Source: Mobula hypostoma (lineage: Eukaryota). From it: DNA of 64,000 bases. Positions 6,180 to 50,316 of this stretch are shown here, piece by piece. Numbering within the stretch: position 1 is the stretch's first letter; every line of letters starts with the position of its first letter. The notes under the pieces were generated by a model. It did no database searches. It was given only the letters and a program-made list of their open reading frames with translations, and was not told where the DNA came from. Location: NCBI RefSeq assembly GCF_963921235.1, contig NC_086108.1, positions 51,462,001 to 51,526,000 on the forward strand, in the 5' to 3' direction. The position numbers and the translations under genes were made by a program.

Positions 6180-7029
6180 CTGACAATTTAGTTTAACCCT
6201 TCCAACAGCCCTGTCCCCTGCACCAATTCCTCAGCCACACATGCATCTGCCAAATCATCCTATTCTTATTCTCAACAGCACATTGCACAGGCAGCAATCC
6301 AGTGGTTACTACTTGGTGGTCCTGCTTTTCAGCTTTCTACCGAACTCCCTGCAGTCTCTCTTCAGGGCCTCCTCCCTTTTGCTATCTATGTTGTTGGTAC
6401 CAATATGTGCCACAACTTCCAGCTGCTCACTCGCCCCCTTTAGAATGTCATAGAGCCAATCTGAGACATCCCTGACCCTAGCACCTGGGAGCCAATCTGA
6501 GACGTCCCTGACCCTTGAACCTGGGAGCCAATCTGAGACGTCCCCGACCCTTGAACCTGAGAGCCAATCTGAGACGTCCCTGACCCTAGCACCTGGGAGC
6601 CAATCTGAGACATCCCTGGCCCTAGCACCTGGGAGCCAAGCTGAGACGTCCCTGACCCTAGCACCTGGGAGCCAATCTGAGATATCCCTGACCCTGGCAC
6701 CTTGGAGCCAATCTGAGACATCCCTGATTCTAGCACCTGGGAGGAAACGTACGTCTCATTGACATCCACAATATCCACTTTCTATTCCTCTAGCTATGAA
6801 ATCCACTCTCACTACTGCAGTCCTCTTCTTCCCCTTCCCTTCTGAGCCTCAGAGGCAACAGCGCCAGAGACCCTATCGCCGCAACTTCCCGCTGGTGGGT
6901 CACCCCCGCAACAGTATCCAAAGTGATAGACCTATTATTGAAGGGAACGACTACATACAGTAAGTACTCAGCACTGTCAGCCTCTTCCCTTTCCATCTCC
7001 TGACAGTCACCCAGGAGCTTTCCTCCTGC
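6180..7029 (-). mobile_element. CR1 LINE ORF1 (esterase) fragment
   Basis: Homologous to 15690-16400 of the near-full-length CR1 (VAHIGTNNI and LPGARVRDVS motifs on the minus strand). Confidence 0.7.
6453..6743. repeat. Minisatellite, 8 x 36 bp
   Basis: Unit gagccaatctgagacgtccctgaccctagcacctgg, with starts at 6453, 6489 ... 6705. Confidence 0.95.
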
Positions 7030-12621: not shown

Positions 12622-15600
12622 AACATGGAAACATAGAAGATAGGTGCAGGTGTAGGCCATTCGGCCCTTCGAGCCTGCACCGCCATTCAGTATGATCATG
12701 GCTGATCATCCAACTCAGAACCCTGTACCTGCTTTCCCTCCATACCCCCTGATTCCTTTAGCCACAAGGGCCATATCTAACTCCCTCTTAAATATAGCCA
12801 ATGAACTGGCCTCAACTGTTTCCTGTGGCAGAGAATTCCACAGATTCACCACTCTCTGTGTGAAGAAGTTTTTCCCCATCTCGGTCCTAAAAGGCTTCCC
12901 CTTTTGGATTTTATACGTTTCAATAAGATCCCCCCTCAATCTTCTAAATTCCAACGAGTATAAGCCTAGTTGATCCAGTCTTTCATCATATGAAACTCCT
13001 GCCATCCCAGGAGTCAATCTGGTGAACCTTCTTTGTACTCCCTCTATGGCAACAATGTCTTTCCTCAGATTAGGGGACCAAAACTGCACACAATACTCCA
13101 GGTGTGGTCTCACCAAGGCCTTGTACAACTGCAGTAGTACCTCCCTGTTCCTGTACTCGAATCCTCTTGCTATGAATGCCAGCATACCATTCGCCTTTTT
13201 CACCGCCTCCTGTACCTGCATGCCCACTTTCAATGACTGGTGTATAATGACACCCAGGTCTCGTTGCACCTCCCCTTTTCCTAATCGGCCACCATTCAGA
13301 TAATAATCTGTTTTCCTGTTTTTGCCACCAAAGTGGATAACCTCACATTTATCCACATTAAATTGCATCTGCCATGAATTTGCCCACTCACCTAACCTAT
13401 CCAAGTGACCCTGCATCCTCTTAGCATCCTCCTCACAGCTAACACTGCTGCCCAGCTTCGTGTCATCCGCAAACTTGGAGATGCTGCATTTAATTCCCTC
13501 ATCTAAGTCATTAATATATATTGTAAACAACTGGGGTCCCAGCACTGAGCCTTGCTGTACCCCACTAGTCACTGCCTGCCATTCTGAAAAGGTCCCATTT
13601 ATTCCCACTCTTTGCTTCCTGTCTGCCAACCAATTCTCTATCCACATTAATACCTTACCCCCAATACCGTGTGCTTTAAGTTTGCACACTAATCTCCTGT
13701 GTGGGACCTTGTCAAAAGCCTTTTGAAAATCCAAATATACCTCATCCACTGGTTCTCCCCTATCCACTCTACTAGTTACATCCTCAAAAAATTCTATGAG
13801 ATTCGTCAGACATGATTTTCCTTTCACAAATCCATGCTGGCTTTGTCCGATGATTTCACCGCTTTCCAAATGTGCTGTTATCACATCATTGATAACTGAC
13901 TCTAGCATTTTCTCCACCACCGATGTTAGGCTAACCGGTCTATAATTCCCCAGTTTCTCTCTCCCTCCTTTTTTGAAAAGTGGGGTTACATTAGCCACCC
14001 TCCAATCCTCAGGAACTAGTCCAGAATCGAAAGAGTTTTGAAAAACTATCACTAATGTATCCACTATTTCTTGAGCTACTTTCTTAAGCACTCTGGGATG
14101 CAGACCATCTGGCCCTGGGGATTTACCTGCCTTTAATCCCTTCAATTTACCTAACACCACTTCCCTACTAACATGTATTTCTCTCAGTTCCTCCATCTCA
14201 CTAGACCCTCTGTCCCCTACTATTTCTGGAAGATTATTTATGTCCTCCTTAGTGAAGACAGAACCAAAGTAGTTATTCAATTGGTCTGCCATGTCCTTGT
14301 TCCCCATAATCAATTCACCTGTTTCTATCTGTAGGGGACCTACATTTGTCTTAACCAATCTTTTTCTTTTCACTTATCTATAAAAGCTTTTACAGTCAGT
14401 TTTTATGTTCCCTGCTAGTTTTCTCTCATAATCTTGTTTCCCTTTCCTAATTAAGCCCTTTGTCTTCCTCTGCTGGACTCTGAATTTCTCCCAGTCCTCA
14501 GGTGAGCTGCTTTTTCTGGCTAATTTGTATGCTTCTCCTTTGGAATTGATACTATCCCTAATTTCCCTTGTCAGCCATGGGTGCACTACCTTCCTTGATT
14601 TATTCTTTTGTCAAACTGGGATGAACAATTGTTGTAGTTCATCCACGCGATCTTTAAATGCTTGCCATTGCATATCCACCGTCAACCCTTTAAGTATCAT
14701 TTGCCAGTCTATCTTAGCTAATTGACGTCTCATACCTTCAAAGTTACCCTTCTTTAAGTTCAGAACCATTGTTTCTGAATTAACTATGTCACTCTCCATC
14801 TTAATTAAGAATTCCACCATATTATGGTCACTCTTACCCAAGGGGCCTCTCACGACAAGATTGCTAATTAACCCTTCCTCGTTGCTCAATACCCAGTCTA
14901 GAATAGCCTGCTGTCTAGTTGGTTCCTCGACATGTTGGTTCAAAAAAACCTTCCCGCATACATTCCAAGAAGTCCTCTTCCTCATCACCCTTACCAATTT
15001 GGTTCACCCAATCTACATGTAGATTGAAGTCACCCATTATAACTGCTGTTCCTTTATTGCACGCATTTCTAATTTCCTGTTTAATGCCATCCCCAACTCA
15101 CTACTACTGTTTGGTGGCCTGTACACAACTCCCACCAGTGTTTTCTGCACCTTATTGTTATGCAGCTCTATCCATATCTATTCCACATCCTCCCGGCTAA
15201 TGTCCTTCCTTTCTATTGCGTTAATCTCCTCTCTAACCAGCAATGCTACCCCACCTCCTTTTCTTTCATGTCTATCCCTCCTGAATATTGAATATCCCTG
15301 AATGTTGAGTTCCCATCCTTGGTCACCCTGGAGCCATGTCTCTGTAATCCCAACTATATCATAATCATTAATAACAATCTGCACTTTTAATTCATCCACC
15401 TTGTTACAAATGCTCCTTGCATTGACACAAAAAGCCTTCAGGCTCGCTTTTACAACTCTCTTAGCCCTTATACAATTATGTTGAAAAGTGGCCCTTTTTG
15501 ATTTTTGCCCTGGATTTGCCGGCCTGCCACTTTTACTTTTCACCTTACTACTTTTTGCTTCTACCCTCATTTTACACCCTTCTGTCTCTCTGCACTTGTT

Positions 15601-16900
15601 CCCATCCCCCTGTTGTGAACTAACCTCCTCTCTCCTAGCCTGTTTAATTTGATTCCCACCCCCCAACCATTCTAGTTTAAAGTCACCTCAGCAGCCCTCG
15701 CAAATCTCCCTGCCAGGATATTGGTCCCCCCAAGGATTCAAGTGTAACCCGTCCTTTTCGTATAGGTCACACCTGCGCCAAAAGAGGTCCCAGTGATCCA
15801 AAAACTTGAATCCCTGCCCCCTGCTCCAATCCCTCAGCCACGCATTTATCCTCCACCTCATTGCATTCCTACTCTCACTGTCGCATAGCACAGGCAGTAA
15901 TCCCGAGATTATTACCTTTGTAGTCCTTTTTCTCAACTCCCTTCCTAACTCCCTATATTCTCCTTTCAGGACCTCTTCCCTTTTCCTACCTATGTCATTG
16001 GTACCTATATGTACCACGACCTCAGGCTCCTCACCCTCCCACTTCAGGATATCTTGGACGTGATCAGAAATATCCCGGACCCTGGCACCAGGGAGGCAAA
16101 CTACCATCCGGGTCTCTGGACTGCATCCACAGAATCGCCTATCTGACCCCCTTACTATCGATTCCCCTATTACTACTGCCCTCCTCTTCCTTTCCCTACC
16201 CTTCTGAGCTGCAGGGCCGGACTCTGTGCCGGAGGCACGGCCACTGTCGCTTCCCCCAGGTAAGCTGTCCCCCCCACAACAGTACTCAAACAGGAGTACC
16301 TATTGTCAACGGGCACAGCCACTGGGGTACTCTCTATTACCTGACTCTTCCCCTTCCCCCTCCTAACCGTGACCCACTTGTCTGCCTCCCATGGCCCCGG
16401 TGTGACCACCTGCCTGTAATTCCTCTCTATCAACTCCTCACTCTCCCTGACCAGACAAAGGTCATCGAGCTGCAGCTCCAGTTCCCTAACGCGGTCCCTT
16501 AGGAGCTGCATCTCGACGCACCTGGCGCAGATGTGGACGTCCGGGAGGCTTGGAGATTCCAGGGCCTCCCACATCCGGCACCGAGAACAACAAGCTGCCC
16601 TCACACTCATACTGCCCCTCTCCTCAAATAACAACAAAAAATGAATACCAAACCTTCCTCGCCTCGCCCATTTCCACCTGAGCCTGTTGAGCCGAAGCCC
16701 TTAAGCCTTCACTCTGCTCCCGGCTCATTCCGCTGCCCGCTGTATAAGGCTCTGTTCCTTTTAAATCTCTATGCTTCACTGCCTGACTTCACATGCCTGT
16801 GCAGTCCCGCCTCTCTGAACGCCGATGGAAAAAAAAACCGAAAAATTCAAAAATGGCTTCCTCCGCACTCCCACTCCAATTCTCAGACTTCCTTCTCCGA
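12622..16900 (-). mobile_element. Near full-length CR1 LINE (ORF1 zinc finger/leucine zipper + SGNH esterase; ORF2 APE + RT)
   Basis: ORF1 pieces at 16173-16637 (CSRC..CARC, coiled coil) and 15688-16107 (HIGTND, DGLHLN). APE pieces at 15178-15666 and 14611-14997 (GKSDHN). CR1 3' hairpin and tail at 12622-12715. Confidence 0.93.
12715..14373 (-). CDS. CR1 ORF2 reverse transcriptase portion (552 aa open; upstream APE frameshifted)
   Basis: Motifs SPGPDG, YRPVSLTS, LDFQKAFDKV, QGSVLGP and FADDT. Confidence 0.9.
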   Translation of the reverse strand: MKRKRLVKTNVGPLQIETGELIMGNKDMADQLNNYFGSVFTKEDINNLPEIVGDRGSSEMEELREIHVSREVVLGKLKGLKAGKSPGPDGLHPRVLKKVAQEIVDTLVIVFQNSFDSGLVPEDWRVANVTPLFKKGGREKLGNYRPVSLTSVVEKMLESVINDVITAHLESGEIIGQSQHGFVKGKSCLTNLIEFFEDVTSRVDRGEPVDEVYLDFQKAFDKVPHRRLVCKLKAHGIGGKVLMWIENWLADRKQRVGINGTFSEWQAVTSGVQQGSVLGPQLFTIYINDLDEGIKCSISKFADDTKLGSSVSCEEDAKRMQGHLDRLGEWANSWQMQFNVDKCEVIHFGGKNRKTDYYLNGGRLGKGEVQRDLGVIIHQSLKVGMQVQEAVKKANGMLAFIARGFEYRNREVLLQLYKALVRPHLEYCVQFWSPNLRKDIVAIEGVQRRFTRLTPGMAGVSYDERLDQLGLYSLEFRRLRGDLIETYKIQKGKPFRTEMGKNFFTQRVVNLWNSLPQETVEASSLAIFKRELDMALVAKGIRGYGGKAGTGF

Positions 16901-19852: not shown

Positions 19853-20323
19853 TGTGAAGATATTTGCTTCCTGGTTCTTGGTTGTTTGCTGATCTCAGCT
19901 TTCTAAATGCAGCATCTGCCACTTGGAGATGAAAAACAGGTGTAAGTAAACTTCCAACTAACAGTTTGTTTAGTTTCTGATTGTAAAAGGAAATCAGTTT
20001 TCTGTTCTTAAAGTGTAAATGGAATCAGTTTGAATTTAAAACAAACTATTGTCTATGGAGCAGCTTAACAGATGGTCTGTCTGTAAAATCAGATGCTAGC
20101 TCACTACACCTGCGTTATTGTTTCTCAGATGCAGTCTTAAGACATTGGGTTGCTTAATTTGAGCTGTTTAAAACAGACAAACTGACTCTTAAGTTGATTA
20201 TTTTAAGGAAGCTTGCAGAACAGATGGATAATATTATTTAGCACATCAATAACTAATATGTTTTGCAAGTTGAAGTTTTATGTACTAAGTTAACTTTACA
20301 GCAATAAATGTGAACTGTGAACA
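19853..20323 (+). mobile_element. Solo LTR (Gypsy/BEL-type) inserted in a CR1 3' end
   Basis: TG...CA termini (tgtgaag / gtgaaca), AATAAA at 20303, 5-bp TSD ctaag/ttaag (4 of 5 match), CR1-like sequence on both flanks. Confidence 0.55.
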
Positions 20324-20820
20324 TTAAGATGAGATCTATGTCTTCAAGATGCTTTTAAACTATTTGTATTGAAACCATATCTGAGGAAATATCATAAGCG
20401 TGCAAAATCACCCAAGTGGGAAGAAAGGGATAAAAATGTAGAGAGCAGTTCAGGCTTATTAGGAATGGGGTAAAGAACACTTGGAAACCCAGAAAAAACA
20501 CAGAGTGAACTAGAATCTATTCCTCTTGCTTTGGATTCTGTAATAGATGATCCATTTGTCTTTTTTGTAGTACACCTTTTTAGTTTATAAGAATTGTATC
20601 TGCCCTTTGTCCCTTATGTTTTATAAATGCTTTGTGCTTTATGTGAAAGAATTGCTTTATGTTTCAGAAATCAGAATCAGAATCAGGTTTAATATCACTG
20701 GCATGTCATGAAATCTGTTAACTTTCTGGCAGCAGTGCAATAAAATACATAACAAATAAATATAGAGAAAAAACAATTACAATAAGCATATATATGTCTA
20801 TTAAATAGTTAAGTTGAAAT

Positions 20821-21680
20821 CGGGACCCTTCAAAAAGATGAGAAGTCAGAATAAGAAGGTGAGGAGGGGAGGAAGAAATACAAGGTTGTAGGTGATAGGA
20901 GAAGCCAGAAGGAGGGAGGGGTGAAGTGAAGAGCTGGGAAGTGCATTGGTGAAAGAGATACAGGGCTGGAGAAGGAGGAATCTGATAGGAGAGGACAGAA
21001 GGCCATGGAAGAAAGGGAAAGGGGGAGGAGCACCAGAGGGAGGTGATAGGCAGCTACAGAGATAAGGTGAGAGAGGGAAATGGGAATGGGGAATGGTGAA
21101 GGGGGGGTGGCATTACCAGAAGTTCGAGCAATCAGTCTTCAAGCCATCAGGTTGGAGGCTATGCAGACTGAATGTAACGTGTTGTGCCTCCAACCTGAGT
21201 GTGGCCTCTTTGAAGAATTAGAGGAGGCATGGACTGACATGTCGTAAAGCCAATGGGAAGTAGAATTAAAATGGCTACTCTGCTTCATCGTTCCCCATTC
21301 CCATTTCCCTCTCTCATCTTATCTCTCTACCTGCCCATCACCTCCCTCTGGTGCTCCTCACCCTTTCCCTTTCTTCCATGGCCTTCTGTCCTCTCCTATC
21401 GGATTCCCCCTTCTCCAGCCCTTTATCTCTTTCACCAACCGACTTCCTGCGTCTTTACCTCACCCCTCCCCTCGCCCAATTTCTCCTGTCACCTACTACC
21501 TTGTATTTCTTCCTCCCCTCCCCTCCCCTCCCCTCACCTTCTTACTCCGACTTCTCATCTTTTTGAAGGGTCCTGATGAAGTGTCTCGGCCTGAAACTCC
21601 GACTGTTTACTCTTTTCCATAGATGCCACCTGGCCTGCTGAGTTCCTCCAGCATTTTATGTGTGTTGCAAATTTTCTCTT
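20821..21680. mobile_element. Penelope-like element with inverted structure (minus 20821-21276, plus 21277-21680)
   Basis: The two halves are reverse complements (ORFs 20830-21033 and 21351-21566 nearly identical). Hammerhead motif cctgatgaagtgtctcggcctgaaac at about 21572. Confidence 0.8.
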
Positions 21681-21684
21681 GTTT

Positions 21685-22525
21685 GATAAGTACTGCCTCT
21701 AATTATGTCAGGAATGCAGTAGAAATAGATCTTCCCATCTGGTCAGCTACCAGCTGGAGAACACACAGAGGTAAACTGCTTCCACATTTGTCCACATGGA
21801 AAAAATAGTAAAGAATTATTATTGACTAGGTTATTAGTACAGGTGTTATACATCCCAGGAGATAACAGAAATAAACTAGCTGACAAACTAAATAATAAAC
21901 AAGCAAAACAAGCTGTTAGGATGGACCTTACCTTAGTAAGGGATGCCATGGTTTTGGCAGTAACTAAGTAACAAATAATGATGATGTATTCAGGATGATG
22001 TTTGAAGAATTCCCCTAGATACTAAAGAAACTAGTTCTAAAGGTCTTCTAATATGGTACAAATATGACGCTGATGGCAAAGGTAAGGTTTGATTATGCCA
22101 CCTTAAAATAATAAGAAGCAAATACAGCAACACTCACAACACGCTGGAGGAACTCAGCAGGACGGGCAGCATCCGTGGAAACGATGAGTCGATGTTTCGG
22201 GCCGGAACCCTTCGTCAGGACCAGCCCGAAATGTCAACTCATCGTTTCCACGGACACTGCCCAACCTGCTGAGTTCCTCCAGCGTGTTGTGAGTGTTGCT
22301 TTGACCCCAGCATCTGCAGAGTATTTTGTGCTTAAGAAGCAAATACACCCCGCCCCAGGTGGGAAGCACCGATTCAAGAAACCCACCAATGATTTGGATA
22401 CATTCATAGTGGCAGACAAACCACTGATGCAATATTAGCCATATTATACCAGTAGTCTTACATGTTGAGTGCTTGTAAGCAATTTGTTGTAAATAGTTCC
22501 ATTACTATAGGCCAGACAATTGTTT
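21685..22525 (+). pseudogene. pol: Foamy-like endogenous retrovirus pol remnant: RNase H and integrase N-terminal/HHCC domain
   Basis: TASNYVRNAVEIDLPIWSATSWRTHRGKLLPHLSTWKK, ..YIPGDNRNKLADKLNNKQAKQA, KGLLIWYKYDADGKGKV and THQ*FGYIHSGRQTTDAILAILYQ*SYM are colinear with recalled prototype foamy virus Pol. Confidence 0.75.
22127..22332. mobile_element. Hairpin-shaped mini Penelope insertion
   Basis: Inverted-repeat arms and a 15-bp TSD taagaagcaaataca at 22112-22126 and 22333-22347. Confidence 0.85.
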
Positions 22526-22680
22526 ACGTATATCCTGTGCAAAGAGCAATGATCACAGTTGTATACTTACTAAGTTTCCAATAAGGTGGGCTGCCATTGG
22601 ATGCCAGAAATAGGCCTATATAATCAATTTGCCACACCTGCATTGTTGCAGTTGTTTTTGTTTGTCTTGTAGGAGGTGGT
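22524..22680 (-). pseudogene. Inverted integrase catalytic-core fragment of the foamy-like ERV
   Basis: Minus strand QVWQIDYIGLFLAS..YTTVIIALCTGYT, compared with recalled foamy FFIDYIGPLPPS..VLVVVDGMTGFT. Confidence 0.7.
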
Positions 22681-23172
22681 CTTGATGAAGATGATGGCGT
22701 TGTCATCGAAACGTCAGTTATAATTGATACCTGTACCTGGCTGGAAGCCCAAGGAAAGTTCATTCATCATATACACCTGGAAAGCACTAAATTTTTTTTC
22801 AAAATGCCAGAAGTTTTTTCAGATATATAAAGAGTAAAAGAGAGAAGAGGGTAGATAGTGGACGTGATGCTGGAGGGGTAGTAATGGGGGGACAAAGAAA
22901 TGGCAGGTGAACTGAATAAGTTGTTTACAGCTGTCTTCACCGTGGAAAACACTAGCAGTACAATAGATGTTCGAGAATGTCAGGGGGCAGATGTGAGTGC
23001 CATTGCCATTTCAAGGGAGAAGGTGCTTGGGAAGCTGAAAAGTCTGAAGGTAGATAAGTCACTTGGACCAGATGGACTACACCCCAGGGTTCTGAAAGAA
23101 GTATAGCTGCAGAGATTGTGGAGGCATTAGTAATAATCTTTCAAGAATCACTAAATTTTAGATTTAGATTTA

Positions 23173-24774
23173 CAAACCCCATTTCCAGAAAAGTTGGGAT
23201 ATTTTCCAAAATGCAATAAAAACAAAAATCTGTGATATGTTAATTCACGTGAACCTTTATTTAACTGACAAAAGTACAAAGAAAAGATTTTCAATAGTTT
23301 TACTGACCAACTTAATTGTATTTTGTAAACATACACAAATTTAGAATTTGATGGCTGCAACACACTCAACAAAAGTTGGGACAGAGCTAAAATAAGATTG
23401 AAAAGTGCACAGAATATTCAAGTAACACCAGTTTGGAAGACTCCACATTAAGCAGGCTAATTGGTAGCAGGTGATTTATCATGACTGGGTATAAAAGTAG
23501 CGTCCATCAAAGGCTCAGTCTTTGCAAGCAAGGATGGGTCGTGGCTCACCCCTTTGTGCCAAAATTCGTGAGAGAATTGTTAGTCAGTTCAAAAGGAACA
23601 TTTCTCAACGCAAGATTGCAGAGAATTTAGGTCTTTCAACATTTACAGTACATAATATTGTGAAAAGATTCAGAGAATTCAGAGACATCTCAGTGCATAA
23701 AGGGCAAGGTCGGAAACCACTGTTGAATGCGCGTGATCTTCGAGCCTTCAGGCGGCACTGCCTAAGAAACCGTCATGCTACTGTGTCAATTATAGCCACC
23801 TGGGCTCGGGAGTACTTCGGAAAACCATCATCACTCAACACAGTCCATCGCTGCATCCAGAAAAGCAACTTGAAACCGTCTTATGCAAGGAGGAAGCCAT
23901 ACATCAACTCTATACAGAAACGCTGGCGAGTTCTCTGGGCCCAAGCTCATCTCAGATGGACCGAAAGACTGTGGAACCGTGTGCTGTGGTCAGATGAGTC
24001 CATATTTCAGCTAGTTTTTGGAAAAAATGGGCGTCGAGTTCTCCATGCCAAAGATGAAAACAACCATCCAGATTGTTATCAGCGAAAGGTGCAAAAGCCA
24101 GCATCTGTGATGGTATGGGGGTACATCAGTGCCCACGGCATGGGTGAGTTGCATGTATGTGAAGGTACCATTGACTCTGAGGTGTATATTAGGATTTTAG
24201 AGAGACATATGTTGCCATCAAGGCGACGTCTCTTCCCAGGACGTCCATGCTTATTTCAGCAGGACAATGCCAGACCGCATTCTGCATGGGCTACAACAGC
24301 GTGGCTTTGTAGGCACAGAGTGCGTGTGCTTGACTGGCCTGCTGCCAGTCCAGATCTATCTCCTATTGAAAATGTATGGCGCATCATGAAGAGGACAATC
24401 AGACAACGGAGACCACGGACTGTTGAGCAGTTGAAGTCTTATATCAAGCAAGAATGGACAAAATTTCCAATTACAAATCTACTACAATTAGTATCCTCAG
24501 TTCCAATACGATTAAAAAGTATTATTAAAAGGAAAGATGATGTAACACAATGGTAAACATGCCTCTGTCCCAACTTTTGTTGAGTGTGTTGCAGCCATCA
24601 AATTCTAAATTTGTGTATGTTTACAAAATACAATTAAGTTGGTCAGTAAAACTATTGAAAATCTTTTCTTTGTACTTTTGTCAGTTAAATAAAGGTTCAC
24701 GTGAATTAACATCACAGATTTTTGTTTTTATTGCATTTTGGAAAATATCCCAACTTTTCTGGAAACAGGGTTTG
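23173..24774 (+). mobile_element. Complete Tc1-family transposon (1602 bp)
   Basis: TA TSDs at 23171-72 and 24775-76. Near-identical TIRs of about 213 bp (23173-23386 and 24563-24774) with internal direct repeats aaaagttggga. Confidence 0.97.
23534..24556 (+). CDS. Tc1 transposase, intact, 340 aa, DD34E
   Basis: ATG at 23534, HTH region, GRK motif, WSDES / QQDNARPH / SPDLSPIENVW with 34 residues between the second D and E. No stops. Confidence 0.93.
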   Translation: MGRGSPLCAKIRERIVSQFKRNISQRKIAENLGLSTFTVHNIVKRFREFRDISVHKGQGRKPLLNARDLRAFRRHCLRNRHATVSIIATWAREYFGKPSSLNTVHRCIQKSNLKPSYARRKPYINSIQKRWRVLWAQAHLRWTERLWNRVLWSDESIFQLVFGKNGRRVLHAKDENNHPDCYQRKVQKPASVMVWGYISAHGMGELHVCEGTIDSEVYIRILERHMLPSRRRLFPGRPCLFQQDNARPHSAWATTAWLCRHRVRVLDWPAASPDLSPIENVWRIMKRTIRQRRPRTVEQLKSYIKQEWTKFPITNLLQLVSSVPIRLKSIIKRKDDVTQW

Positions 24775-24776
24775 TA

Positions 24777-25350
24777 GATTATGAGGACACGCAGTCCTCT
24801 TTTATTGTCATTTAGTAATTCATGCATTAAGAAATGATATAATTTTTTCCTCCAGAATGATATCACAGAAACACAAGACAAACCAAGACAAAAAAACTGA
24901 CTAAAACCACATAATTATCACATATAGTTACAACAGTGCAAAGCAATCCATAATTTGATGAAGAACAGACCATGGGCACGGTAAAAAAAAGTCTCAAAGT
25001 CCCTCAAAAGTCCCTTCATCTCACGCAGATGGTTGAAGGGAGAAACTCTCCCTGCCATGAGCTTCCAGCGCTGCAAACTTGCCGATGCAGCATCCTGGAA
25101 GCACCTGACCCCGGCAACAGGCAATAGGCAAAGCCGAGGATTTAGAGCCTTCCCCTCCGGAGATTTTCGATCACATAGTAGCAGTGGCAGCGAAGCAGGC
25201 ATTTCTGAAGTTTCTGCAGATGTTCCTCCGTGCTTCTCATGTCCGTCTCCATCAAATCAGGATTGTGCACGGCCGCTATGTAACAAATATGATATCAATT
25301 CGGAGCCGCTGCACACGCTGAGTCGCGTCGCCATCTTCTCCCCCCCCCTC
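24777..25350 (-). mobile_element. ~640-bp non-autonomous retroelement, copy 2 (tail remnant at ~23157-23172)
   Basis: Reverse complement of 2113-2754. The (agatt)n tail is split by the Tc1. Confidence 0.8.
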
Positions 25351-26810
25351 CTGTTCTTCATAGTTCTGAAGGACTGGAAATTCTAGCATGGTTCTGAAGG
25401 ATGGAAATTTGCAAATGTCACTCACCCTTCAAGATGGGAAGGAGGCAGAAAAAAGGAAATTATAGGCTAGTTAGCCTGACCTCAGTGGTTGGGAAGATGT
25501 TGGAGACAATAGTTAAGGATGAGGTTTCAGCGTACTAGGAGGCACATGATAAAATGGGCCAAGGTCAGCATGGTTTTCTTAAGGGAAAATCTTGCCTGAC
25601 AAATCTGATAGAATTAACAAGCAGGATAGACAAAGGAGAATTGATGGGTGTTGTGACCTTGGACTTTCAGAACGCCTTTGACAAGGTGCCATACATAAGG
25701 CTACTTAACAAGATAAGAGCACATGGTATTACAGGAAAGGTATTAGCATGGATAGAACATTGGCTGATGGGCAGGAGGAAAAGAGTGGAAATAAAGAGAG
25801 ACTTTTATGATTGTCTGCCAGTGACTAGTGGTGTTCTGAAGGTATCAGTATTGGGACCGCATCATTTTATGTACATCGATGATTTGGATGATGGAATTTA
25901 TGGCTTTATGGCCAAGATTGCAGACAATACGAAGATAGTGGGAGGGGCAGGTAGTGTTGAAGAAGACAGGAGGCTGCAAAAGGACTTGGACAGATTAGGA
26001 GATGGGCAAAGAAGTAGCAGATGGAATACTGTGTCAGGAAATGTATGGTTATGCACTTTGGTAGAGGGAATAAAAGTATAGACTATTTTCTAAATGGAGA
26101 GAAAATACACAAATCTGAGGTGCAAAGGGACTTGGGAGTCCACATGCAGGATCCCCTAAAGATTAACTTACAGATTGATTTGGTGGTGAGGAAAGCACTC
26201 ATTTAGAGAGGACTGGAATATAAAAACAAGGATGTAATGCTAAGGCTTTATAAGGCCCTGGTGAGGTGTCATTTGAAGTATCGTGAGCCGCTTTGGGTGC
26301 TTTATCTAATAAAGGATTTGATGACATTGGAAAGGGTTCAAAGGAGTCTCATGAAAATGATTCCATGATGGAAAGGCTTAACATATGAGGAGCATTTGAT
26401 GGCTCTGGGCCTGTACTTGCTGGAAGACATGAGGGAGAATCTCATTGAAACCTATCGAATGTTGAAAGGACTAGGTAGAGTGGATGTGGAGAGAAGGTTT
26501 CCTATAGTGGGGAAGTCTAGGACCAGAGGCATAACCTCAGAATTGAGGGACATCCATTTAGAACAGAGATGAGGGGGAATCTCTTTAGCCAGAGGATGGT
26601 GAATCTGTGGAATTAGTTGCCACAGGCTGCTGTAGCAGCCAGATCATTGAATGTATTATTTTTGGTAAGTCAAGACATGGACAATCATGAGGAGAAAGCA
26701 GAAGAATGGGGTTGAAAGGGAAATAGATCAGCCATGATCAAATGGCGAGGCAGACTCGATGGACTGAATGGCCTAATTCTGCTCCACTGTCATATGATCT
26801 TATAGTCTTA

Positions 26811-27310
26811 CGGAAATGACTTTTGGAGTGACTTAATGATTTATTCTATGTTGTGATTCTCAAGATAAAAACGCCACTCAAGTCCAAGGAATGATTTATG
26901 ATGGGTGCAACAGAAAAATCCCAGAAAGACTTGATATTCATCAATAATGGCTAGAAGAATCTATAGCAGTCAAATTAAAAGGACATCTCTCTATGTATTA
27001 CGAGAGTAACTGACTGTCACAATCAGATGAGCGAGGCACTTCTTTCACAAGTTTTCTTTGCAGACTCATGCAATGCACACCCTGATTAGCTTAACATTCT
27101 AGCTGAAACCGTAGCTAAGGCCTTTCCATCTGTTGCAAATTTAGTTTCCGCAGCAGCGAATACAGTTTCTGGGTGGATTGGCATTACTTTAAATTGGGTT
27201 ACAGATTTCTTTATATGGTTTTCCAATGGACAATTCCCATAGGCATTGGAATGATTGTTTTTGTATTGCTCTTTGTGCTGAAATGTCGAAGCCTGCAAGG
27301 TTGGAACCTT
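26811..27310 (+). pseudogene. env: Foamy-like ERV env remnant (TM subunit C-terminus and membrane anchor)
   Basis: IAVKLKG..., then AHPD*LNILAETVAKAFPSVANLVSAAANTVSG and, after a frameshift, WTIPIGIGMIVFVLLFVLK. Recalled foamy Env reads IIAKIKG...DTPAWIQQLAAATKDVWPAAASALQGIGNFLSG...LKPILIGVGVILLVILIFK. Confidence 0.7.
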
Positions 27311-27689
27311 GATGATTTCTGCTTTTTGTATAATGGCTTCACTCTTAAGATTCTGAACTCCCATATCTGATCTGCACTACCATGGGTTACCTCTCGCATG
27401 ACTGCTTTGCTATCCCCTGCCTCATACTCACCTTTTTACCGATTCCTCTGATTCAACTTCAGTCTTGGAAGAGTTAAGAACAGGGACTGTCCTCATCATG
27501 TTATCCTTGCTCTTTTCCTAGTCTGGATCATCAACGATGCGTACAGAGATACCTGTTTCTCACTTCATCTTGAGAGGGGTTGGGATGTGTCTGTTGCAAA
27601 ATAATTGGTCTAATAACACCATCCCACAGAAAGATGAGACAATAAACACTATTTTTCTCTTTTTTACTGGTCCTCACTTTCAATAATTC

Positions 27690-29243
27690 CTCCTTCACCT
27701 CTTCGCACTTCCTGCAAACAAAGGTGTAGCCGTGGGCTCTCACATGGGTCCCAGTTATGCCCGCCTTTTTTGTCAGCTACGTGGAACAGTCCATGTTCCA
27801 AGCCTACACCGGTATCTGTACCTAACTTTTACTAAGCTACATCGATGACAGCATTGGTGCTGCTTCCTGCACCAATGCTGAACTCATCAACTTCATCAAC
27901 TTTGCCTCCAACTTGCACCCTGTCCTCAAGTTTACCATTTCCGAAACCTCCCTCCCTTTTCTCAATTGCTCTGGAGTCAGCTAATCTACTGATATCTTTT
28001 ATGAACCCACTGATTCTCACGGCTACCTAGACCATACCTCCTCCTACCCTGTTACTTGTAAAAGTACCATCCACGTCTCTCAATTCCTCTGTCTCTGGCG
28101 CATTTGCTCTCAGGATAAGGCTTTTCATTTCAGAACTAAGGAGAGGTCCTCCTTCTTCAAAGAAAGGGGCTTCCCTTCCTCCACCATTGACGCTGCCCTC
28201 ACTCATATCTCTTCCATTTCACACACGTCTGCCCTCACCCCATCCTCCCACCACCCCACCAGGGATAGGGTTCCACTTGTCCTCACCTATCACCCCACTA
28301 GCCTTCACGTCCAGCACATAATTCTCCGTAACTTTCACCATCTCCAACAGGATCCCACCACCAAGCACAACTTTCCCTATCGCGCCCCCCCCACACCCCA
28401 TTTTCCACTTGCTTTCAGCAGGGACCACTCCCTCAGCAGGGACCACTCCTGGCACTTATCCTTGCAGTGGAACAAGTGCTACACCTGCCCCTACACCTCC
28501 TCCCTCACCACCATTCAGGACCCCAAACAGTCCTTTCAGGTGAAGTGACACTTCGCCTGTAGTCTTTTGGGGTCATCTACTGTATCTGATGCTCCCAGCG
28601 TGGCCTCCTGTATATCAGTCAGACCCGATGTAGATTGGGAGACCGCTTTGCAGAGCACCTACGCTCTGTCCGCCAGAAAAAGCAGGATCTCCCAGTGGCC
28701 ACACATTTTAATTCTTCTTCCCATTCCCATCCCGATATGTCGGTCCATGGCCTCCTCTACTGCCATGATGAGGCCACACTCAGGTTGGAGAAGAACACCT
28801 TATATTCCGTCTGGGTAGCCACCAACCTGATGGTATTAACATTGATTTCTCAAACTTCCAGTAATGGTCCACACCCACCCCCACCCCCACTCTCCTTCAC
28901 CATTCCCCATTCCCATTTCTCTCTCACCTTATCTCCTTACCGGCCCATCACCTCCCTCTGGTGCTCCTCCCCCTTCCCTTTCTCCCATGGCCTTCTGTCC
29001 TCTCCAATTAGATTCCCCCTTCTCCAGCCCTTTGTCTCTCTCATTAATCAGCTTCCCAGCTCTTCACCCTCACCTTCTTACTCTGACTTCTCATCTTTTT
29101 TCTTCAGTCCTGATGAAGAGTCTCGGCCTGAAACATCGACTGTTTACTCTTTTCTATAGATGTTGCCTGGCCTACTGAGTTCCTCCAGCAATTCATGTGT
29201 GTTGCTCAGATTTGCAGCACCTGCAGAATTTCTCTTGTTGATT
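27690..29243 (+). mobile_element. Penelope-like element (RT C-terminus, GIY-YIG, terminal repeat with hammerhead)
   Basis: MGPSYA, YIDD and GDRFAEHLRSV motifs. Hammerhead agtcctgatgaagagtctcggcctgaaacatcgact at about 29106. Confidence 0.85.
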
Positions 29244-29947
29244 ACTTTTTACTTACCTAGTTGGATGTTACTTACTTACTCTTTAATATGGGCATTCCTC
29301 TATATATAGTTCTTAAGTTTTATAATGTCTTTTGCAAAGGTGTTGTTTATGGCTAATGATGGCATGTTACTATTATGGTTGACTTGTTTGACTTTTAAAA
29401 CCATCTATCTTACTGTATTTCATTATAGCACACAAGACATATCAGGAGGAGAAAGATAGCCACCTCCGAGGAATGCTAGACTCCTGATAACTGACAATAA
29501 GTAGGGAGGTTATGTGTACAACTTTCTTAGTTAGAGAAATGCTTAATCTAAGACAATAAGATGGAAAATATAACCAGCATTCTTTAAAAAAGTATAAATG
29601 TATCTTTTTCAGAATGGTGTAAATTATTGCCCTTTTAGTTTACTTATGAATGCACTCACATGAACTTTGAGTAATGCAGTGTATTAAAAAAGGGGCTAAG
29701 TTTCAGTAAAAGGTGGCTTACATAACCTGTATTATATTTTCTACTTCCTCTATCATTTATTTAATATAATTAAACTGAAAGGCACCAGCACTGTGCCACA
29801 TGTGAGAATCAGAACAAGATATGGGAGATCAAAACCATACATCCATGAGCTATGATGAACAATGTGCAACAGTAAAAATGCATCCTAAAACAGAAAAACA
29901 AGTTTGTTGTGTTTCACTAGGAACATTTAATAACAATAACTTCATTT

Positions 29948-47909: not shown

Positions 47910-48578
47910 ATACAAAGTCATGGAGTCAGAAAGCACCCAGAAACAGGCCCTTCAGCCCTCTGGTCCATGCCTACATGTTTTTCTGCCTTGTCCCATTTAC
48001 CCACACTCAGCCCATACCCCTCTCATCCATGTCCTTATGAAAACTTCTCTTAAATGTTGGAATTGAACTCCCATCTACCTCCTCTGCTGGCAGCTCATGC
48101 CATATTCTCATCACCCTCTGAGTGAAGTTAGTTCCCCCTCAGGTTCACCCAAACATTTCCCTGCGGTTGGGTAAGAATAGAATCTCTAGTTCTCGTCTCA
48201 CCCAAGCTCAGGGGGAAAAGCCTGCAATATAGTTACCCTATCTTTCCCCTTCATAATTTTGTATTAGTTCTATCAAACCTCTCCTCACACTCCTGTGCTC
48301 CAGGGAATAATGTCCTAAACTATTCAACTCATGTCCTCAAGTGCTGGCAACATCCTTGTAAAGGGTCTCTGTACTCTTTCAAGTTTATTGATATCTTTCC
48401 TGCAGGTAGGTGAACAGAACTGTACACATAATTCCAATACCACTAACCATACATTGTACATTCTGATCCAAATCATTGATACAGATTACAAACAACAATG
48501 GGCCCAGCACAGATCCTTGAGGCACACCATTAGTCACAGGCCTTCATTCCAAAGCCTACCTTCTACCATCACACTCTT
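47910..48578 (-). mobile_element. CR1 3' fragment
   Basis: Homologous to 11740-12300. Confidence 0.7.
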
Positions 48579-48579
48579 A

Positions 48580-50316
48580 TGGGTAATTACAGGTTGCGGG
48601 GAGCCTGGGGTTTACAGGGATAGAATGACCCAATATGTAAAAGACCTTTGTAACCAACTTAAAGTGTTGAAGGACCAAGCAAAACAACAGCAGCGAATCG
48701 CTGATCAGAGAGAGCCAGAGGGAAAGGGGATAGTTCTTCCACAGCCCAGCGACCAGGTTATGGTGAAAGTGCTGCCAGAAAGGCCAGAATTTGCCCCCAG
48801 GTGGATAGGACCACAGACGGTACTCTTAACGAATGATACGTGTGTCTGTGTACAGACTCGGCGAGGCAGTCAGTGGAAACACTGGACTCAGGTTAAAGTA
48901 TATGACTCACCCTCTTGTTGTTCCCACAGACAGAGTGGGGAACCAAGTGTACCCAGTAACCATGTAATTACAGAGAACCTAAGAGAGGAACACCAGCCGG
49001 CCATGCCAGACCCGACCACAGCTGATTAAAACATACCCGGAGGAACCGCAAAGGCAGAAAACACTGAGAGCGTGGCAGAAGACACTGAGAACATGTTGGA
49101 AAACCATGAATAACCTGCTAAAGTGTGATGACGATGGTACTCTGTAAAGAAGGCTGGTTGCTGAAGGTAGGTGATTAATTTTATAGCATAGTATAGAAAT
49201 TTATTGGGAAATAGACAGGGAGGAATTTCTGAGTTAAAGCAGAGACGGCAAGTTCCACCACTTTGATGGCATTTCAGACTGCACACGGCATCTGAAAGCA
49301 GTCACCCCGAGTCTGAGGAGCTGGGCCCTTTTCAGCAGTTGAGCCAGTGATCGACCGGACAGTTCAGAAGGGGGTGCCACCGGGGAGAGGTCCTTGCAGA
49401 CATTTACATAGAGCCCACCCCAACCCCTTCCTGTACATCGATGAGAGAGCCTGTGGGCGCTCCTGGAAGGAGAGTTTCAGCGACCAGAGGATAAAGGGCT
49501 GAAACAAAGGAATGTGATTAAGATGCAGTCAGCCTGCAGGCACATGAAAGGAGCTGCATTCCTAAAGACTTGGAACAGCCTCTCTGCTTAACATTTGGTA
49601 GGTAGCGGTTAGGGAATGCTAGGATAGATATCGAGGTACATAAAATTGGGGGGGATTTTGAGACAGGACATTTTTGCTGCCTTATTTGAGCAGATCTCCT
49701 AGGCTGGCCTTTCCTGACACAAACTTAATTTTTGTCCAGGAGGGCCAAGAGGAAGAACTGTCAGAGTGAGTTTCTTTGGGTAGATGATTTGTTTACACTT
49801 AAATGACTTTGGCCACCAGACTTCTATTTGACAAAGTACTGTGGATTGAGTTCACAACAATGCGCTTCCTAAAAAGGTGTGACTACCAGATGCTTCTGGC
49901 ACTGTAGTTTGACCTGATGCTGTAGTTTCAAAGACAGTATCATCTATACATTATAAACATTAATTGTCTTCTATGTTAGCACGGGAAATGCCAAATAAAT
50001 GTATCATAGACTTAACTTGCATTCCTAAAGGCTGTAGATACCAACCCAGACATGTTGGCGTCGGAAGGTAACGATGGTGTGATATTTTGTATGTAGCTTC
50101 AATAGGAAGCATTGTCTATGCACTGTCTATAACTTTTTAAGTAGTGATTGCTTTTGTGTTTAGCATGTAAATATCGAGCCCATGTTGAGCTAGCAGACCT
50201 TTCTGCGGAAAGCATCTCTGTCCGTAGATGCCTGCTGTACCTTGTTGTGTTGAATGAAGAAGCTGCTTTGTATCTACCAGTGACTCTGTCTCTCCGGTAA
50301 TTTCACCCACGCTACA
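48580..50316 (+). mobile_element. Endogenous retrovirus 3' end (epsilon/gamma-like integrase C-terminus, PPT, 3' LTR 49659-50316), no env recognised
   Basis: QPSDQVMVKVL..FAPRWIGPQTVLLTNDTCVCV..WKHWTQVK is a retroviral integrase C-terminal domain. PPT aaaattggggggga at 49642-49655, then an LTR tgagac...gctaca. Confidence 0.8.

Follow-up and report, generated by a model that had tools for sequence, protein, structure and literature searches.

A 64,000-nt stretch of contig NC_086108.1 from Mobula hypostoma (genome size 3.48 Gb), referred to throughout as the window, holds at 19853-29492 one dead and broken copy of a large and old provirus family related to foamy viruses. That the family is a foamy-related endogenous retrovirus (ERV) we regard as close to certain. 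The overall explanation that we favor, at a probability of roughly 0.7, is that a foamy-related founder with a damaged env gave rise to the family and to a helper-dependent form of it, and that the insertions were mostly reduced to solo long terminal repeats (LTRs) and later decayed. The initial annotation of this DNA had described an old and rare foamy-like ERV at 20340-27370. Its foamy-like character is borne out by the matches of the family's Pol, Gag and Env and by non-coding hallmarks, and its age by the divergence of the copies. The element reaches further, from 19853 to at least 29492, and it is not rare: the genome holds hundreds of internal copies and thousands of LTR candidates, and foamy-like ERVs have already been published from sharks and rays.

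Results

Relationship of Pol, Gag and Env to foamy viruses

The family is laid out as LTR, gag, pol, env, an accessory region of ~1.9 kb, and LTR. Its copies at other loci of the genome carry names of the type L012, and single natural frames of these sister copies, with X at stop codons, were used in the protein searches. The reverse transcriptase (RT) palm of L012 matched foamy virus Pol in the PDB with 87 bits (E 1e-23); the next three chains scored 34, 23 and 22 bits (8R0S, 7SR6 and Ty3 RT), and the RTs of human immunodeficiency virus (HIV) and murine leukemia virus (MLV) ~15. At E≤10, the RNase H of L065 and the RT thumb of L041 retrieved foamy chains only. One frame of the integrase (IN) core of L042 retrieved only the integrase of prototype foamy virus (PFV), and a second L042 frame gave chance matches only. 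A family integrase profile reached 70 bits against PFV integrase versus 28.5 for HIV and 22 for Ty3. The best RT, RNase H and IN matches were all to exogenous foamy viruses (prototype and marmoset Pol, 7KSE, 7KSF, 7O0G and 7O24, and PFV integrase). Among the enzymes in the PDB, foamy virus Pol is the closest to the RT, RNase H and IN of the family. The Gypsy alternative raised in the initial annotation fares poorly, Ty3 scoring far below foamy for both RT palm and integrase, and neither enzyme suggests a Ty3/Gypsy or gamma/epsilon-type ERV identity.

In the window itself, the annotated RNase H peptide is present from 21695. It lies in a stop-free piece of 38 aa (21692-21805) whose PDB matches at E≤10 are all foamy Pol or RNase H chains (5/5, best E 0.0088). 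The RNase H/IN region of the window, searched in another frame, had no relevant match in the PDB, and none of 14 window frames was significant in Pfam. In L067, the stretch homologous to window 22333-22525 matches Integrase_H2C2 (E 8.4e-6), and SH3_11 was detected in one of nine IN C-terminal frames (E 1.8e-4, below the cut-off). No open pol occurs among the copies found, and the family matches in a protein search with the RT palm all lie in short or interrupted frames.

For the Gag center and Env, the best matches were likewise to exogenous foamy viruses, which are represented in Pfam by PF03408, PF20672 and PF18103. Gag_FV_central was found in one of eight gag-region frames (E 5.8e-4), and Foamy_virus_ENV (PF03408) in two of eight N-terminal env pieces (E 5e-4 and 0.015, profile 102-210) and in one of 14 other env pieces (E 0.017, profile 343-390), each below the cut-off. 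The three PF03408 matches, in L047, L043 and L096, are collinear. PDB searches with Env pieces returned nothing. A CX2CX4HX4C Cys-His box was seen in none of 12 gag regions, a motif that decay would erase in most copies. An N-terminal hydrophobic Env segment is present in 13 of 17 copies, and a hydrophobic segment at the position of the window's env anchor in 16 of 21. With the sister copies' matches below cut-off, these observations are consistent with a foamy-type Env made up of a leader with hydrophobic segment, a surface part and a transmembrane anchor.

The initial annotation had also recognized a transmembrane part of Env in the window, from peptides and from a resemblance to foamy Env. 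The peptides are there, at 27090 and 27233 in two frames; the resemblance was non-significant in every search, and the window's Env end matched neither Foamy_virus_ENV nor any PDB chain. Since this piece (26812-27300) has no match of its own, its probable identity as env rests on its position, at the collinear end of the gene that in sister copies matches foamy Env farther upstream, and on the hydrophobic anchor.

LTRs and non-coding marks

The LTRs measure ~1.15-1.2 kb and have TG and CA ends. Copies of 5' and 3' type share a border beginning with TG, which a purine tract precedes in the 3' copies; all 13 3' LTR borders are purine-rich and G-rich before TG. Window 19857-20670 aligns to positions 19-864 of the 1.2-kb LTR of L086 (E 1.5e-108), and L071, L077, L078 and L079 have the sequence of window 19875-20671 after their env. 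The segment 20340-20670, previously read as an RT connection, is LTR DNA, and the former reading was discarded because it is this same sequence that aligns to the LTR.

Target-site duplications (TSDs) were examined at 28 LTR loci, 21 of which had both ends and no primer site. A 4-bp TSD was perfect in 8/21 and within one mismatch in 13/21, with 0.7% in mismatched control pairs; duplications of 5 or 6 bp were found in 0/21. After the 5' LTR, all eight copies carry a primer site that matches the genome's own tRNA-Lys(CTT), the sole tRNA compared, at 9-13 of 18 positions (random DNA reaches 9 in 5.7% and 11 in 0.4%). The window copy has no primer site. Between env and the 3' LTR lies a conserved region of 1.8-2.0 kb with a longest open frame of 95 aa (three copies), and in L042 the ~270 nt between IN and env leave no room for an extra gene. 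According to PMC5210030, foamy viruses are marked by priming with tRNA-Lys, duplications of 4 nt, a border with GGGTG and the lack of Cys-His boxes, and 4-nt TSDs are a gammaretrovirus trait as well. Two foamy-type marks, the tRNA-Lys primer site and the 4-bp TSD, are present in the family.

Copy number and age

First-look candidate counts do not equal copy numbers, and 40 candidates were scored for each of the two internal queries. Window 21670-22130 gave 225 first-look candidates and window 26811-27480 gave 238; all 40 scored were copies in each case, at 72-79% identity over both queries and 72-78% for the first. The paralogues that the initial annotation had proposed to look for are accordingly dispersed through the genome, and the pol and env pieces keep in them the order that they have in the window. 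An LTR query gave 4,643 first-look candidates, ~20 times the internal ones, and this excess points to mostly solo LTRs.

The copies are ~22% apart (25% for the window copy) and form a star-shaped tree. Six cognate LTR pairs differ by Kimura two-parameter (K2P) distances of 0.155-0.252, and 30 non-cognate pairs are similar (mean 0.25). At 0.5e-9 substitutions per site per year, which is itself an assumption made for catshark in PMC10699275, the pairs would be 155-252 million years (Myr) old, and 78-126 Myr at twice that rate. The family would have spread roughly 80-250 Myr ago at the assumed rates. A pedigree rate from the epaulette shark (7e-10 per generation; PMC10587355) was left unused owing to the implausibly old ages that it gave.

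A second organism, represented by four runs from one sample of one study, holds 54-55% of the sampled 31-mers of window 26811-27660. This share equals ~98% identity, far above any paralogue in the window's genome, and a sister species probably has the same locus. Six further organisms have small shares (0.07-0.17), which we counted as no evidence, and no RNA run was among the listed sequencing-run holders of this segment.

Shared shortening of env and deletions in pol

Eleven distinct loci, one of them palm-bearing, are collinear across mid-env, and in all of them env is ~270 codons shorter than in foamy viruses: the distance between Env profile position 390 and the anchor is ~890 nt, versus ~1,700 in foamy Env. 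Because the spacing up to profile position 390 is near that of mammalian foamy Env, the shortfall covers the interval of the cleavage site and HRA, which in gorilla foamy Env lie at 544-570 (cleavage linker) and 576-651 (HRA; PMC11468914). An env without just the receptor-binding domain was considered and rejected, since profile 343-390 lies inside that domain. A scan of env in these decayed copies, limited to the furin motif R-x-K/R-R, showed no cluster, with a maximum of two copies per 50-nt bin. A long env was sought in 10 more palm-bearing loci; six held env, none with extra env-like sequence, and a 2-kb insert in L166 matches other repeats.

In pol, eight places at seven loci lack the RT palm, all with the same junction, which has a short direct repeat at its border; six loci keep the palm. 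All seven palm-less places examined are also without fingers, the protease motif being joined directly to RT, and all six palm-bearing loci keep them. Among the 40 scored genome matches, 39 run through the palm junction, so that at least 39 copies share the RT-palm deletion. With a palm query, all 40 scored matches carry most or all of the palm, and the proposition that every copy lacks it was rejected on this account. The window copy is without the diagnostic pol region, and its assignment to the deleted or the palm-bearing class failed.

Three further observations concern single copies. L066 and L084, on the same contig, are ~97% alike from RT thumb to integrase and have different pol deletions upstream, a likeness that may reflect later duplication or gene conversion of part of the element. 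L065 contains a ~1-kb tandem duplication over the protease/RT junction region of one provirus (L065:5900-7260). An unidentified younger element of 420 bp, at 90% identity, sits at different internal sites in L041:4581-5000 and L043:2122-2541.

Structure of the window copy

The window copy is among the more damaged family members and most likely does nothing today. Everything from the 3' third of the 5' LTR to the middle of RNase H is gone, including the primer site, gag, protease and RT, as are a further ~2.2 kb of integrase and env (measured against L053), the last ~1.3 kb of post-env sequence and, after it, the 3' LTR. What is left of the 5' LTR (19853-20671, plus strand) begins with TG and comprises the first ~850 of ~1,150-1,200 bp. 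The site of the gag-pol loss is filled by younger inserts (20672-21682) with inverted arms at 20858-21114 and 21270-21526 that match repeats in many loci, an inverted pair of retroposon 3' ends which we take to be Penelope-like. Frameshifted pol sequence with stops follows at 21683-22126 (plus strand), encoding the C-terminal half of RNase H and the integrase start. It is separated from the zinc-binding region of integrase (22333-22525, plus strand), with which 21683-22125 is contiguous in other copies, by a palindromic insert that resembles a short interspersed element (SINE; 22127-22332, arms 22126-22205 and 22221-22300). Identical 15-mers at 22112-22126 and 22333-22347 flank this insert as a 15-bp direct repeat. 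The annotated N-terminal integrase peptides were recovered at 22039 and 22402, and the start of the integrase core, at 22608-22637, does lie on the minus strand: it belongs to a locally inverted piece (22526-22684) that has the opposite orientation in all copies among L041-L050 that carry it (9/9).

The rest of integrase and the 5' three quarters of env, a loss of ~2.2 kb, have been replaced by a fragment of a CR1/L2-type long interspersed element (LINE; 22816-26810, plus strand, RVT_1 at 25539-26078). The LINE is split by a Tc1 element (23168-24779), with its transposase at 23501-24553 (DDE_3, E 3.7e-17), and by a second insert (24775-25341), and its halves are contiguous in L042. Together with the 15-bp repeat at the SINE-like piece, the transposase and the joined LINE halves confirm the nesting of younger inserts that had been proposed. 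Downstream lie the broken 3' end of env, with the membrane-proximal region and transmembrane anchor (26812-27300, plus strand), and the first part of the post-env region (27301-27660, plus strand), which copies have in common downstream of env at the position of foamy accessory genes; no protein was identified in it. A younger retroposon insert, presumably Penelope-like, occupies 27666-29239 (plus strand). It matches repeats in L043 and L044, its two open reading frames (ORFs) gave no match in Pfam, and ERV sequence resumes on both sides of it, the second part of the post-env region (29241-29492, plus strand) being contiguous with 27660 in other copies.

Other elements in the window and genome

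The Tc1 transposon at 23168-24779 has terminal repeats that are 96% complementary and an open frame of 351 aa (DDE_3, HTH_Tnp_Tc3_2), and looks young. Elsewhere in the window, a CR1/L2-type LINE on the minus strand (12715-16299) retains an open RT frame of 552 aa with a GDSL-esterase ORF1 upstream, and a 36-bp tandem array of ~9 units occupies 6417-6776, with one related unit at 16063-16102. An open frame at 48319-49029 with a weak MLVIN_C match (E 0.0066) is probably an integrase C-terminal scrap of a different ERV of gamma/epsilon type. A search of the window with Rfam found nothing. Across many contigs of the genome there are dozens of long open RT frames, reaching 1,580 aa and sharing 27-32% identity with the foamy-like palm; they appear to represent other, much younger LTR-retrotransposon families.

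Discussion

The history that we favor would begin with the entry of a foamy-type virus into the germ line, where it primed on tRNA-Lys and inserted with 4-bp duplications. The founder of the family would have lost ~270 env codons between the receptor-binding domain and the membrane anchor, and it follows from this loss that the family would have multiplied mainly by retrotransposition inside germ cells. PMC3705263 reports that a primate foamy virus is able to retrotranspose inside cells. A derivative in which the RT palm and most of the protease/RT fingers were missing would have kept its LTRs and primer site and been copied in trans by Pol-competent members. We consider this combination of env loss and helper dependence probable. 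Most insertions would then have collapsed to solo LTRs. The window copy would later have lost gag to RT, most of integrase and env, and the 3' LTR, undergone inversion of 160 bp and gathered younger elements.

Our results should be interpreted with some caution, as several observations weigh against this account. No match of Gag or Env to a Pfam model reached its curated cut-off, and most of the pieces searched had none. Foamy_virus_ENV was not detected in 12 long mid-env frames, nor did PF03408 or the Spuma protease model (PF03539) find anything across the genome, both of these searches being insensitive. The GGGTG motif is present in just 3 of 13 3' LTR borders. Mid-env was checked in 11 of hundreds of copies. 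Deleted and palm-bearing copies are not separable by sequence (503 of 1,716 relabellings were as extreme), and for that reason only the shared junctions indicate that the deleted form arose once. The PDB is not known to contain Pol of ERV-L, snakehead, epsilon, lokiretrovirus or fish foamy-like type, so that ranking foamy first does not amount to a tree. Finally, a short Env need not be a deletion, because one fish foamy-like ERV has a natural Env that measures 718 aa (PMC5210030).

This last point leads to an alternative in which the same foamy-like family had a functional Env that was compact by nature, at ~680 codons, and spread through repeated infection, a helper being needed by the pol-deleted form alone. 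Every copy retains the two ends of env (with the N-terminal hydrophobic segment in 13/17 and the anchor in 16/21), no locus examined has a long env, and the 718-aa Env, that of PpERV-1, is described in PMC5210030 as having furin sites. The position of the shortfall, at the cleavage site and HRA of gorilla foamy Env (PMC11468914), and the lack of any R-x-K/R-R cluster in our copies (≤2 per 50-nt bin) speak for damage instead, and we hold a compact functional Env to be unlikely. It is also conceivable that short direct repeats gave rise to the pol deletions over and over in copies already inserted, and that a helper-dependent sub-lineage never existed. A direct repeat does border the palm deletion, the deleted copies are not a clade, and L084 carries a different deletion in the same region. 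Yet independent origin would uncouple the two deletions, which occur together in 7/7 palm-less places and in 0/6 palm-bearing loci, and the palm junction is common to at least 39 copies; repeated deletion consequently seems to us quite improbable.

It could further be argued that the family is not foamy at all and belongs with ERV-L, snakehead-type, lokiretrovirus, epsilon or Gypsy elements, its foamy likeness stemming from missing better references. In favor of this, homologue searches with an L041 frame, an IN alignment and the L135 RT palm gave none that scored, and phmmer against 1.84 billion representatives gave 0 matches. Viral contigs gave one weak match of 31 residues (L159). Against such an identity stand the far lower scores of the Ty3, MLV and HIV enzymes in the PDB, the spumavirus-specific Gag and Env models that match at collinear positions, and the 4-bp TSD with the tRNA-Lys site. 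ERV-L elements differ in having 5-bp TSDs and are not known to carry env. We give a non-foamy identity hardly any credence.

Compared with exogenous foamy viruses, the family is alike in its long LTR, tRNA-Lys site, 4-bp TSD, N-terminal hydrophobic Env segment and post-env region, and in that IN and env lie too close together for a further gene to fit. It differs in being endogenous, dead and of high copy number, with env ~270 codons shorter and the GGGTG border in 3/13; resemblance to Tas or Bet was not seen either, no search aimed at it having been made. AciFLERV, DrFV, PpERV-1 and CmiFLERV (PMC5512871, PMC5210030) and the catshark element ERV-Spuma.0-Sca (PMC10699275) likewise have a tRNA-Lys site, 4-nt TSD, a post-env region, no Cys-His box found, and a fish host. 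The sources on the teleost elements (PMC5512871, PMC5210030) describe ORFs between pol and env, which the window's family is without, and no detectable homology of DrFV Gag and Env to foamy viruses, whereas here Gag and Env match foamy models. Judged by these features, the family seems closer to canonical foamy viruses than the teleost elements are. The oldest LTR date given for ERV-Spuma.0-Sca is ~36 Myr at 0.5e-9 (PMC10699275), versus 155-252 Myr here.

Foamy-like ERVs of sharks and rays as such are already known, and published foamy-like ERVs include those of chimaera (PMC5512871) and catshark (PMC10699275). Our literature search, which did not cover supplementary files, found no full-text account of a ray foamy ERV. 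A 2023 article by Wang, Chen and Cui in J Virol is, by its title, about an endogenous foamy virus of cartilaginous fish, and reportedly covers sharks and rays. The window's family may be that lineage or its sister.

The interest of the finding lies in the size and age of the family and in its shared deletions, and the single locus in the window adds little. Foamy viruses have rarely become endogenous in mammals and serve as the main clock for the deep history of retroviruses. In a family as old and numerous as this, many insertions could be dated by asking which related species carry them, and minimum ages obtained in that way would replace rate-based guesses. More tentatively, and with some doubt on our part, a true foamy virus may have turned into an intracellular germ-line retrotransposon in cartilaginous fish >100 Myr ago, shedding its Env fusion core, acquiring a Pol-dead satellite as numerous as the Pol-bearing form, and leaving thousands of LTRs behind. 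If so, different families of rays or sharks would have insertions in common, and these would count among the oldest foamy integrations whose age orthology can give. In conclusion, the presented data suggest that a foamy lineage, too, has been shaped by two processes seen in other ERV classes, damage to env and the copying of helper-dependent forms.

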